IMG/VR virus record: IMGVR_UViG_3300017914_002582
Location: 3,526 to 67,525 of that record
Direction: 5' to 3' (one strand)
DNA: 64,000 nt
DNA from: a virus
Lineage: Duplodnaviria > Caudoviricetes
Shown: piece after piece, positions 2,788 through 7,292 of the stretch
Layout of the letters: each line of letters opens with the position of its first letter
How positions within the stretch are numbered: the stretch's first letter is position 1
Made by a program: the position numbers and the translations under genes
Notes under the pieces: generated by a model
The model's input: only the letters and a program-made list of their open reading frames with translations
The model's database searches: none
What the model was told of the DNA's origin: nothing

Positions 2788-4657
2788 TTACAGAAGATTT
2801 AGTCCGATTAATGTGAGACATATTGCCGATAATTGTTGTACTGTTATCGTTTGTAGTTGATGCCGATGACACTGGTGCACTTACAACAACTGGTACAGGA
2901 TTAGCCATCATCATTCCAGACATCATCATATTATCAGATTGAGTCTGTTCCATAATAGCACCAGTGGATACTTGTGGATTAATCACACCGATTGAATCTT
3001 GTAATGCTTTAAGTTTTACTTCATCAATCTTTTCAATACCCTTTGCAACTACTTCTATTGCTTCCTTTAGACCTTTTTTAATATTGCCTGTTGAGAATTT
3101 ATCTCCGACCTCTTTAAGTTTTTCCATTGCTGTAATTAATCTTTCAAGACCATCAGCAGCTTGTTGGAGTCCTGGGCCTGCTTTACCTAATTCCCCGATT
3201 TTCTCAAGAGGACTTTTGGCTTGTCCAAAAGTAAAGAGTTTAGTAAGACCTTCACCAACATTCGATAACAGATTCCCCACAGTAAGAGCAGTCAAACCAG
3301 CTGCAAGTGAAATTAATCCGCCGCCGATCGCAGCTAAGTTAAGTGCATCAATATCATTAAAGTTTTGTAACTCGACACCTAACTTACCTATGTTTTCAAC
3401 TGCAGAACCAATGAAGTCAGATACAGTATTTGCAATACTCTTAAAACTTTTAACTAAGTCTTCTAATAGACTACCAGCAAAATCTGCAAGTATAGGAAGA
3501 AGTCTTTCTATTGCTGGCCCTAGTTGTTCATTAATTGCTCTACCAAATATTTCAAATGCTTTAGCTGCAGGAATCATTGCTAAACCAAGAAGTCCTATTG
3601 CAGCTGCACCAATCAACATCGGAACAGACGCTGCACTTAGTGCTAGGGAAGCTACAACTAAACCAGCTAAGACGGTAATTCCTACGCCAACTGCTTTCCA
3701 TGATACCTCACCGAACATTTGAAAAGCCTTTGCAGCTGGGATTAATGATGCACCAATTGCAGCCATTGCTAAAGCACCTTTAATTACTTTTGCAAAGTTT
3801 TTACCAACTGCAGCAAATCCTTTACCGATACCCGATACAATACCTCCGATAAGACCACCAAAACCTTTTCCTAAAGCCCCTAATCCCTTAAGAGCAGAGG
3901 GTACTTTACCTCCACCACCAGTTGAAGCATCAGCAGTGTCGTCACCAGTGCTACCCATTGTCGTATCTCTAACCGGCTTGAATTGAAGCTTCTTGACATA
4001 ATCAGCAATAAGTGAGATGTCTCCTCCGATTCTATTCTGCCCAAAGACATCATCTACTAAGAAACGAAGATCGTTTACTTCTTCAGCTACTTGGGTTAAA
4101 CCAGCATCAGCAGTGTCATTCAATGTTTGGAGAAATGGCGTGATTGCATTGTCGTTTGTGGTCTCTATTTCAGCACCAGAGGTTTCTACCTTAAGAGTTT
4201 CAACAGGAGTTTCGATTTGTCTTGTAGGTGTAGTAAGTGCATCAAGATATGTATTTAACATCTCTTTTGCTACATCTTTAATTTCCATTGTCTCTTCTAT
4301 GAGAATGGTAAACAAATCTTCCAATGGTGCTAGACTATCGCGGAATGCAGAGCTAAGACCTTGGCCATCTATTCCTTTAGGTTGTTTAAGACCCTTTAAG
4401 AATTCAAATGGTTTCTTTATAAAGCTTGGGACTAAATCCGAAAGGCTGGACTTCAAAGAATCAATACCCATTGCAAGTTGTTTAGCAGGATTAAGAGCTT
4501 CTGCAACATTGGTAATAGCATCAGAGGCACTTTCTCCGACTTGTTTTATTGCAGATGCAACACCACTTGCAGAACCAGCGCGTTTGTTAGCGCTCTTAAG
4601 TTCTTTAACAACTTCAGATAATTCTTTTACTACTTCTGTTATCGGTTCTTCTGCCAT
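2768..4657 (-). CDS. gp29: Tape measure / baseplate hub protein, gp29-like
   Basis: 629 aa, helical and Ala/Gly/Leu-rich with a hydrophobic central segment. Lies directly downstream of gp26/gp51 and is close in size to T4 gp29. The call rests on position and composition. Confidence 0.7.
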   Translation of the reverse strand: MAEEPITEVVKELSEVVKELKSANKRAGSASGVASAIKQVGESASDAITNVAEALNPAKQLAMGIDSLKSSLSDLVPSFIKKPFEFLKGLKQPKGIDGQGLSSAFRDSLAPLEDLFTILIEETMEIKDVAKEMLNTYLDALTTPTRQIETPVETLKVETSGAEIETTNDNAITPFLQTLNDTADAGLTQVAEEVNDLRFLVDDVFGQNRIGGDISLIADYVKKLQFKPVRDTTMGSTGDDTADASTGGGGKVPSALKGLGALGKGFGGLIGGIVSGIGKGFAAVGKNFAKVIKGALAMAAIGASLIPAAKAFQMFGEVSWKAVGVGITVLAGLVVASLALSAASVPMLIGAAAIGLLGLAMIPAAKAFEIFGRAINEQLGPAIERLLPILADFAGSLLEDLVKSFKSIANTVSDFIGSAVENIGKLGVELQNFNDIDALNLAAIGGGLISLAAGLTALTVGNLLSNVGEGLTKLFTFGQAKSPLEKIGELGKAGPGLQQAADGLERLITAMEKLKEVGDKFSTGNIKKGLKEAIEVVAKGIEKIDEVKLKALQDSIGVINPQVSTGAIMEQTQSDNMMMSGMMMANPVPVVVSAPVSSASTTNDNSTTIIGNMSHINRTKSSVTNGRYR

Positions 4658-4848
4658 TACATTCCCTTAGATTGCTGTTTAATCCTTTCGTTTTCTTTTT
4701 CGATGTGGTTCATTAACATTGCCACATATATTTGCCTTTCCCATGGCAACATATTATCTAGTTCGGTCAGACTATACTGATGGTGTTGCATCATCGAAAA
4801 ATTAGTCTGATAATGATTCGCTAAAGTATCATGTGAAAGGCCTATCCG
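4657..4848 (-). CDS. gp51: gp51-like baseplate hub assembly segment, probably reached by -1 frameshift from gp26
   Basis: Not in the ORF track. Reads RIGLSHDTLANHYQTNFSMMQHHQYSLTELDNMLPWERQIYVAMLMNHIEKENERIKQQSKGM*, and MMQHHxYSLTELxNMxPWERxIY is the gp51-like signature. The first ATG is at 4794; the stop overlaps the gp29 ATG (TAATG). Confidence 0.8.
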   Translation of the reverse strand, partial: RIGLSHDTLANHYQTNFSMMQHHQYSLTELDNMLPWERQIYVAMLMNHIEKENERIKQQSKGM

Positions 4849-5540
4849 AAAAAATCTTGCAACCCCCTTAATGTTACTTCGTTTTTAGTTTTGCACTCTG
4901 GACACTGAAAAACAAGGTCGTGAGATAGCGTGGGTAAATTTTCAATATACGCTTGAATCTGACTAATCTGATCGTGGTTTAATGAATCGATAAACTCAAC
5001 AAGCTCAGCTGAAGACGTATCATCTGCAGGATATATTTTGTCATCATCAAAGATGGTATCAATTACTGAACACAACACCTTTGTAATGTCATCGGTATCA
5101 GCAGTTAAACCAGTTGCGTGTTTTAGGCCAACTGGACGTAAGGTAATGCCAATCCGATCTGTCAGTTGAATCTTACTATCAACTTCCTTATCTGAATTTC
5201 TAACTCTTACATCAGATAAAGATAGTTTCACCTTTGTCATGTGTTCGCACTCTTTACACTTTAACATAAACTCTACCAATTCTCCGACACTCTTAGAACG
5301 AAACTGAATAAACAGATATTCCGCGTCATATAGTGTTAGATCATTTGGGTTTACTTTGTTGTATGTACATGATTTAATAATACTTTTCATGGCATTAATG
5401 ATATTATCAGTATCATTTGTTTCTTGTGCCATCATAAGAATTTTTTCTTCCTTTACTAAGAAAGGGCGATACTCAATAACCTTACCCGATGAGGGGATAG
5501 TTATTTCGTATGTTGGTGTTTCTAGTTTTGGTAGTGCCAT
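4842..5540 (-). CDS. gp26: Baseplate hub assembly protein gp26
   Basis: MALPKLETPTYEITIPSSGKVIEYRPFLVKEEKILMMAQE, two CxxC pairs (CKEC, CPEC), C-terminal GLQDFFG. Confidence 0.93.
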   Translation of the reverse strand: MALPKLETPTYEITIPSSGKVIEYRPFLVKEEKILMMAQETNDTDNIINAMKSIIKSCTYNKVNPNDLTLYDAEYLFIQFRSKSVGELVEFMLKCKECEHMTKVKLSLSDVRVRNSDKEVDSKIQLTDRIGITLRPVGLKHATGLTADTDDITKVLCSVIDTIFDDDKIYPADDTSSAELVEFIDSLNHDQISQIQAYIENLPTLSHDLVFQCPECKTKNEVTLRGLQDFFG

Positions 5541-6842: not shown

Positions 6843-6850
6843 TATTTATG
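6843..6850 (-). promoter_or_regulatory. Late promoter variant CATAAATA upstream of gp2
   Basis: One mismatch to TATAAATA; ends 6 nt from the gp2 ATG, the same spacing as other late promoters here. Confidence 0.55.
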
Positions 6851-7292
6851 TATTTAATAGGCGAATACCTAGACTTTTAAGAGTGTTTTCAGTGAAGATT
6901 TGAAACTCCCAACCTCTATGTTTACAGTACTTTCTTGCAGCTTCCCATTTTGATATATTTTTTCCGTAAGTGAGAACCTCTTTAAGATATTTTTGAGTTT
7001 TTCGTTTACCTTTTTCTGGTGGCTTTGTTTGATGATCTGGTTTTATTTCAATAAGAACCACACGCCCGTCTTTAAATTTTACTTTCACATCTACAAAATA
7101 TCGATGCATACGATTATCAGTTTTACATCTATAAGGTATGACAACCGATTCAGAAGACCATCTTACTACTTCGTCTCTTTCTTCACACCACCGAAAAAAC
7201 TGTCTTTCCCACAAAGAGCGGTACACTACATTATTAAAGTCGCCGTCATACTTTTCTGGTTTCTTAACTTTATATTTACCACGATAAGCCAT
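6846..7292 (-). CDS. gp4: Head completion nuclease gp4
   Basis: MAYRGKYK...KY.GD..NVVYRSLWER, WSSE.VVIPY, HRYFVD, EIKP, NISKWEAA; adjacent to gp2. Confidence 0.95.
   Translation of the reverse strand: MAYRGKYKVKKPEKYDGDFNNVVYRSLWERQFFRWCEERDEVVRWSSESVVIPYRCKTDNRMHRYFVDVKVKFKDGRVVLIEIKPDHQTKPPEKGKRKTQKYLKEVLTYGKNISKWEAARKYCKHRGWEFQIFTENTLKSLGIRLLNT

Follow-up and report, generated by a model that had tools for sequence, protein, structure and literature searches.

A conserved poly-T slip site probably joins the gp26-like and gp51-like reading frames of a marine T4-like phage into one recoded tail assembly chaperone gene

Among the tail genes of an uncultured, marine, T4-like phage, a gp26-like gene is followed in the −1 frame by an open-reading frame (ORF) without a start codon at its head, the later part of which is usually annotated as 'gp51'. 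The DNA analyzed here, called the window, is a stretch of 64,000 nucleotides (nt) from IMG/VR record IMGVR_UViG_3300017914_002582; all coordinates are positions in that window, in which the tail genes lie on the minus strand. From comparison of this locus with its relatives, it appears highly probable that the two ORFs are a single gene, recoded by a −1 ribosomal shift on the heptamer U_UUU_UUC, and that its two products serve as tail (tape-measure) assembly chaperones. The features discussed below are collected in Table 1.

The gp26-like ORF ends in AGG GGG TTG CAA GAT TTT TTC GGA TAG. An earlier note on this DNA had described this 3′ end, the heptamer at 4854–4848, the AGGGGG 8 nt upstream of it, and the gene order from a tube-like gene through gp26 and a gp51-like ORF to a tape measure gene, and all of these were found where it had placed them. 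The frame relations that it gave were likewise correct. Between stops, the −1 frame runs open for 75 codons, 4884 to 4657 (reading ..FFRIGLSHDTLANHYQTNFSMMQHH..PWERQIY..), and ATG, GTG, and TTG are all absent from it ahead of the ATG at 4794, with the result that the predicted products are a short form of 232 amino acids (aa) and a long form of 231 + 63 = 294 aa. The 45-aa ORF that begins at ATG 4794, the one usually annotated as 'gp51', is contained in this −1-frame extension. The stop codon of the gp26-like ORF lies one codon past the heptamer, and −1 shifting is enhanced by a stop codon adjoining the slip site. The gp26-like protein matches the Pfam family PF12322 (T4_baseplate), which covers gp26 and gp51, with 208.6 bits (E 1.2e-61) over profile positions 2–218 of 219, the curated cut-off of the family being 24.5 bits and membership requiring a full-length match. 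For the −1-frame ORF, matches were obtained to phrog_634 ('baseplate hub assembly catalyst', gp51; E 1.7e-29) and to positions 224–277, the last 55, of phrog_150, the same family that is matched by the gp26-like protein. Shine–Dalgarno (SD) sequences are present at the gp26 start (AAGGA) and at the start of the tape-measure candidate (AAGGGA), and there is none at ATG 4794.

Table 1 Position of the proposed recoded gene, its candidate signals, and the flanking genes in the window
Feature	Position	Strand	Basis or remark
Tail-tube-family gene, directly upstream of gp26	6250–5561	−	phrog_45 tail tube, E 2e-40; Pfam Phage_TTP_2; T4 gp19
Short chaperone form (TAC-N; gp26-like), 232 aa, zero frame	5540–4842	−	PF12322, phrog_150
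SD-like AGGGGG, 8 nt 5′ of heptamer	4868–4863	−	Candidate element
Slippery heptamer T_TTT_TTC, zero frame GA[T TTT TTC]	4854–4848	−	X_XXY_YYZ phase
−1-frame extension, 63 codons + stop; C-terminal part of predicted 294-aa long form (TAC-NC)	4848–4657	−	
Zero-frame stop TAG, one codon past heptamer	4844–4842	−	
5′ arm of candidate long-range stem; alignment A1 columns 14–24; −1-frame codons G-L-S-H	4841–4831	−	6 nt past heptamer
3′ arm of candidate long-range stem; alignment A1 columns 111–121; codons P-W-E-R-Q	4744–4734	−	
Tape-measure candidate, 629 aa, at T4 gp29 position	4657–2768	−	Position, size, composition

The locus was compared with 80 IMG/VR loci (39–55% gp26 identity), eight isolate genomes, and 80 loci of the cyanophage clade; the 87 evaluable loci form 36 clusters at <85% nt identity, and the 80 cyanophage-clade loci were counted separately. 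The earlier note had proposed a conserved TTTTTT(C/T) at gp26/gp51 junctions as a check, and T_TTT_TTC or T_TTT_TTT in X_XXY_YYZ phase was present in every one of the 87 evaluable loci and in 80 of 80 from the cyanophage clade, a frequency well above chance expectation. Among the isolates that carry the heptamer are Vibrio phi-ST2 (Schizotequatrovirus), Sinorhizobium phiM12 (Emdodecavirus), Pelagibacter HTVC008M, Mosig, P-SSM2, and S-N03, with Kyanoviridae and pelagiphages among the groups spanned. The T run is 6, 7, or 8 bases long, six being commonest, and from the run onward the −1 frame is open in the compared loci; the zero-frame stop follows the heptamer by 0–1 codon in nearly all relatives and by 7 codons in Mosig. 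Codon choice around the run is uniform, as the codon before it ends in T in 36 of 36 clusters (background 0.39–0.69) and the first Phe codon is TTT in all 36 (background 0.67). About eight lineages have a −1-frame stop, TAA or TGA, directly 5′ of TTTTTT, so that in these the −1 frame can be entered only at the run. Homopolymer runs are error-prone, and the feature might be an assembly or sequencing error in the run, or a gene in decay; but the frame relation is the same in 167 loci, drawn from independent metagenomes and from finished isolate genomes of four virus groups, which refutes this explanation and leaves it with next to no probability.

The stretch of the −1 frame that lacks a start codon behaves as coding sequence. 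Over the 57 nt from the slip site to the first −1-frame ATG, conservation in the −1 frame amounts to 1.19 bits at the first codon position, 1.41 at the second, and 0.69 at the third, a periodicity indicating that the stretch evolves as coding sequence in that frame; coding conservation upstream of the internal ATG, the second check named in the earlier note, is thus present. The best-conserved DNA in a 2-kb blastn search against phage genomes is the gp26/extension junction itself, at about 4690–4866, and tblastn with the 64-aa extension returned 549 phage records, in which the alignments begin with residue 1, still within what is annotated as the 3′ end of gp26. No in-frame gp26–gp51 fusion occurs among the best 120 of 7939 gp26 relatives, all of which are 222–243 aa long. 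It could be held that nothing is recoded here, gp51 being an independent 45-aa protein made from ATG 4794 and the conserved stretch upstream of it a regulatory or RNA element, which we regard as very unlikely. A separate small gp51 is annotated in most GenBank records, and in P-SSM2 gp51 has been annotated as starting at an ATG that immediately follows the gp26 stop, but the annotated starts vary arbitrarily among records (in eight GenBank records, the small gp51 begins directly after the gp26 stop, begins at an internal Met, or is absent; a joined or ribosomal-slippage coding sequence was found in 0 of the 8). The upstream stretch, moreover, is periodic by codon in the −1 frame and conserved there as amino acids, and ATG 4794 lacks an SD.

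The two forms predicted for the window have counterparts in the gp26 and gp51 proteins of T4. Residues 1–201 of T4 gp51 (249 aa) constitute a full PF12322 domain (E 4e-52), T4 gp26 (208 aa) matches PF12322 as well, and in BLASTP, residues 200–249 of T4 gp51 align with the window's extension from the slip-site Phe onward (E 1e-5). Since gp51 is a PF12322 domain followed by a tail, gp26 and gp51 of T4 are a short and long paralogue pair, and the predicted fusion is colinear with gp51, both consisting of the domain and a tail of ~50–60 aa with ..NF..(Y)SL....P.ER motifs. This colinearity across the junction also speaks against an independent 45-aa protein, as does the consequence that, without recoding, a long form would be missing altogether from such phages. 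T4 and the phages closest to it have a separate gene for each form and no T run, whereas phages of the window type have one gene and the proposed −1 shift; among complete genomes, one PF12322 gene is found in Mosig, P-SSM2, HTVC008M, and phi-ST2 and two in T4. The 3′ end of T4 gp26 (L004:3803-3850) reads ..RGLKEFFELL with FF encoded by TTC TTT, and the T run is missing from the gp26 of all six phages examined with separate genes 26 and 51, T4 included. As the run is absent from two-gene gp26, it is at the nucleotide level that the T6 run marks the one-gene (frameshift) state.

Other two-gene phages differ from T4 in detail. In the five besides T4 (L169-L173), there is either another residue in place of the second Phe or an interruption of the run. 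In Escherichia phage RB16 (L171:1201-2494), genes 51 and 26 share a strand, one behind the other and overlapping by 8 nt, within the order 48-54-51-26-25, where those of T4 are divergent, and this arrangement is a different resolution of the short/long pair. A tree of PF12322 domains contains three well-supported groups joined by unsupported branches, and for that reason it does not tell whether the frameshift or the two-gene state came first.

The fold of the gp26-like protein was compared with those of known tail assembly chaperones (TACs). The AlphaFold2 (AF2) model of the protein has a predicted local distance difference test score (pLDDT) of 87, and in an exhaustive VIA-align search, residues 1–90 matched an uncharacterised protein (3fgx, Z 7.7), the tail assembly chaperone of HK97 (2ob9; Z 7.0 over 83 aligned residues), and YqbN (3klu, Z 6.3), the next match after these three solved structures being at Z 4.6; values of Z below 8 are not decisive. 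This suggests that the N-terminal domain of the model is TAC-like. Foldseek against the PDB with the same model gave no usable match, nor did the gp26 alignment when run as a profile against the sequences in the PDB, and at the sequence level the gp26-like protein had no match among the TAC families of Pfam. In BFVD, the gp26 fold occurs in many large myophages. The model appears to consist of two similar halves, each with helices followed by a beta-hairpin and a CxxC knuckle (C95/C98 and C213/C216), of which only the first half resembles TACs; the four Cys are nearly invariant and, in the model, probably form one zinc site. The central proposal of the earlier note, that a −1 shift fuses gp26 to gp51 and that what is annotated as a short gp51 corresponds to T in a pair like G/GT of lambda, is supported by slip-site conservation, coding periodicity, colinearity with T4 gp51, PF12322 gene counts, and the TAC-like N-terminal fold together.

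Elements around the heptamer that might stimulate a shift were evaluated next to the slip site itself. The earlier note had pointed to the upstream SD-like AGGGGG by comparison with dnaX, in which an upstream SD stimulates −1 shifting; an element of that type would be expected ~10 nt 5′ of the heptamer and conserved to a degree that coding needs do not account for. The GG at −11/−10 within the element is invariant, with only 0.09 bits at the third codon position, and it supplies the Gly of an R/K-G-L motif; the same motif occurs, encoded as AGA GGC CTC, in T4 gp26, where there is no frameshift. Because the GG belongs to a motif kept in T4 gp26, AGGGGG cannot be credited as a stimulator. The same note had seen no strong hairpin downstream. 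That holds for local structure, since no local hairpin was found after the slip site in the window (RNAalifold over +7 to +100; single fold z −0.07), and fails at longer range, where there is a candidate stem of 11 bp with an 86-nt loop. Its distance from the heptamer, 6 nt, lies within the 5–9 nt expected of a structure that stimulates −1 shifting. Cells of this stem are paired in 85.8% of cases in 32 sequences, as compared to 81.2 ± 0.9 in shuffles (0 of 500) and 40–57% when the partner is slid. Codon choice within the stem yields 9.26 of 11 pairs, as compared to 7.09 ± 0.20 under synonymous resampling; the Arg in the 3′ arm is the rare AGG in 24 of 33 sequences (background 0.04), and the Leu in the stem is CTY in 30 of 30 (background 0.29). 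Folds of 140 nt from Mosig and from three further loci (L019, L025, and L033) hold the stem at z −3.4 to −4.1. Where the long-range stem is broken, local hairpins occur 5–8 nt past the heptamer, in S-N03 (z −4.2), P-SSM2 (z −3.6), phi-ST2 (z −3.4), and phiM12 (z −2.8).

Two of these cases deserve a description. Synechococcus phage S-N03 (L088:2512-2540) has a perfect 10-bp hairpin with the core AUGAUGCAC..GUGCAUCAU, 7 nt past TTTTTTC, which is the clearest canonical stimulator of −1 programmed ribosomal frameshifting (PRF) of the set. In Prochlorococcus phage P-SSM2 (L002:2513-2587), the heptamer is kept, the long-range stem is missing, and a strong local hairpin lies ~6 nt past the heptamer.

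Several observations weigh against one gene recoded on the ribosome, or against the RNA structure that might assist it. With respect to the stem, the 140-nt fold of the window reaches only z −0.43, with the stem in the minimum free energy (MFE) structure and not in the centroid, and the window's stem has an A.G mismatch at columns 21–114. Phylogeny-aware tests of independent pairs identified 2–4 pairs with compensatory changes, which is too few and not significant, and an apparent covariation at stem pair 14–121 in 32 sequences (Gly/Ser vs Ala against Gln vs Glu) was lost, with 51 C-C mismatches, once the 80 loci from the cyanophage clade were included. The folds of HTVC008M and ACG-2014e contained no convincing structure. 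With respect to the gene itself, the FF and R-G-L motifs are partly constrained as amino acids, the IMG/VR record of the window is 37% complete, with one PF12322 gene, so that a second may lie elsewhere in the genome, and the gene directly downstream is a tape-measure candidate whose identity is mainly positional. Lastly, a polymerase that slipped on the run would yield the same product as a ribosomal shift, and the six U's of U_UUU_UUC permit polymerase slippage too. Taking both sides together, we consider the presence of a stimulatory RNA structure after the heptamer to be about evenly balanced. The more specific proposal, that the shift is driven by interchangeable RNA structures 5–8 nt past the heptamer, a long-range stem maintained by unusual codon choice in the clade of the window and local hairpins in P-SSM2, S-N03, phi-ST2, and phiM12, falls slightly short of an even chance. 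If real, such structures would settle the mechanism as ribosomal and not transcriptional, and they would make the proportion of short to long chaperone adjustable across the T4-like phages. No description of RNA stimulators at this junction was found, and these lineage-specific downstream structures are the only possibly new element of the present work.

Transcriptional slippage, in which RNA polymerase adds one U on the T6–T8 run and a fraction of the mRNAs thereby carries the two frames in one, is the alternative that has to be taken most seriously, though we consider it unlikely. Its signal, a homopolymeric T run of 6, 7, or 8 bases, is the one observed. Known productive transcriptional slippage uses runs of ~8–9, however, for which six T's, the commonest form here, are short. 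The T run is also always in X_XXY_YYZ phase, and a stop within 0–1 codon and, in several lineages, RNA structures 5–8 nt downstream accompany it, neither of which matters to the polymerase in known slippage cases. The paper by Vladimirov, Gautam and Davidson (Virology 2022;566:9) may be listed on the side of slippage to judge by its title, and in the paraphrase given by PRFect it speaks of two separate genes.

A −1 shift on the ribosome is retained as the preferred explanation, and it would operate as follows. Most ribosomes would terminate at the zero-frame TAG and release the short form. A minority would slip back one base on U_UUU_UUC, where two tRNA-Phe would re-pair from UUU-UUC to UUU-UUU, and these ribosomes would read the −1 frame to 4657, producing the long form colinear with T4 gp51. 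The slip would probably be aided by the zero-frame stop one codon on and by RNA structure starting 6 nt past the heptamer. By analogy with G/GT of lambda and gp26/gp51 of T4, both forms would have the tape measure protein, encoded directly downstream, as their target, the long form would also bind the tube protein, and neither would stay in the virion.

This arrangement resembles known systems to different degrees. Xu, Hendrix and Duda reportedly established in 2004 that a −1 frameshift is conserved in the genes for tail assembly chaperones in long-tailed phages. Like gpG/gpGT of lambda, the window has two overlapping ORFs between the tail tube and tape measure genes, a heptamer at the end of the first ORF, and a second ORF without a start, and the N-terminal fold of its gp26 appears to resemble that of a TAC, as suggested by the HK97 comparison. 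In contrast to gpG, gp26 of the window is about twice as long and has two CxxC knuckles, and its heptamer is U_UUU_UUC where that of lambda is G_GGA_AAG. The E/E′ tail chaperones of phage P2 are said to be made by a −1 shift on T_TTT_TTG (Christie and colleagues, in 2002); P2, too, has a contractile tail, and its poly-T heptamer lies close to where the short ORF ends, with the tape measure gene downstream, whereas the protein family is unrelated by sequence. We know of no comparable downstream structure for P2 E/E′. A TAC frameshift at an invariant GTTTTT has been predicted for Vandenendeviridae and Andersonviridae (PMC12846349), and these share with the window a conserved poly-T at the 3′ end of TAC-N and a −1 frame open through an ORF annotated as 'hypothetical'; they differ in belonging to other phage families with another chaperone family, and the same paper cites T4-like phages as a precedent.

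The genes on either side of the proposed recoded gene are consistent with its placement among tail genes. The ATG of the tape-measure candidate overlaps the stop of the extension (ATGTAATGG), and the order of tube-like gene, gp26, extension or small ORF, and tape-measure candidate is kept in phi-ST2, phiM12, HTVC008M, and Mosig; in HTVC008M and phiM12, the genes at the position of the candidate are annotated as tape measure. Sequence matches of the 629-aa ORF are weak (phrog_4372, E 0.0097; T4 gp29, E 0.048), BLASTP of this ORF against the HTVC008M tape measure and T4 gp29 was not significant or marginal, and an NCBIfam search with it returned no match. One or two small ORFs separate the gp51 stop from the tape-measure gene in Mosig (L003:3421-3823), phiM12 (L086:2702-3121), and HTVC008M (L087:2708-3040), and there are none in the window. 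Homologues of gp2 and gp4 also lie upstream. The gp4-like head completion gene (phrog_218; 6846–7292, minus strand) also matches the Pfam endonuclease family Tn7_TnsA-like_N (E 1.7e-20).

Both T4 proteins have been described as hub assembly chaperones (Leiman et al. 2010, PMC3004832). According to papers that cite it, the study of Vladimirov et al. identifies T4 gp26 and gp51 as the tail assembly chaperones TAC-N and TAC-NC; in the summary given by PRFect, it shows frameshifting to be replaced in some T4-like phages by a short gene plus a fused long gene, and the phage Adele paper (PMC12846349) cites it for poly-T −1 slip signals in the TAC-N genes of T4-like phages. In the GenBank record of Acinetobacter phage Octan, both gp26 and gp51 are named 'tape measure protein assembly chaperone'. 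A search of the open full-text literature on a gp26/gp51 frameshift found no paper that describes the slip. As conveyed by the citing papers, the principle of a frameshift in the TAC genes of T4-like phages was apparently already published in 2022, and the window would then be an additional, well-supported example.

The gp51 of cyanophages and marine vibriophages has been noted to lack ~200 N-terminal residues and to reach only ~20% of T4 gp51 in length (Sullivan et al. 2010, PMC3037559). A gp26–gp51 fusion made by frameshifting would explain this short gp51. It would also call for a correction of annotation, as >500 GenBank phage records contain a 'baseplate hub assembly catalyst gp51' of 45–60 aa with an arbitrary start, where the real product is most likely a gp26–gp51 fusion of ~290–300 aa. 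With such a fusion, T4-like phages would fall under the general rule for long-tailed phages, in which a short and a long tail chaperone are made from one locus.

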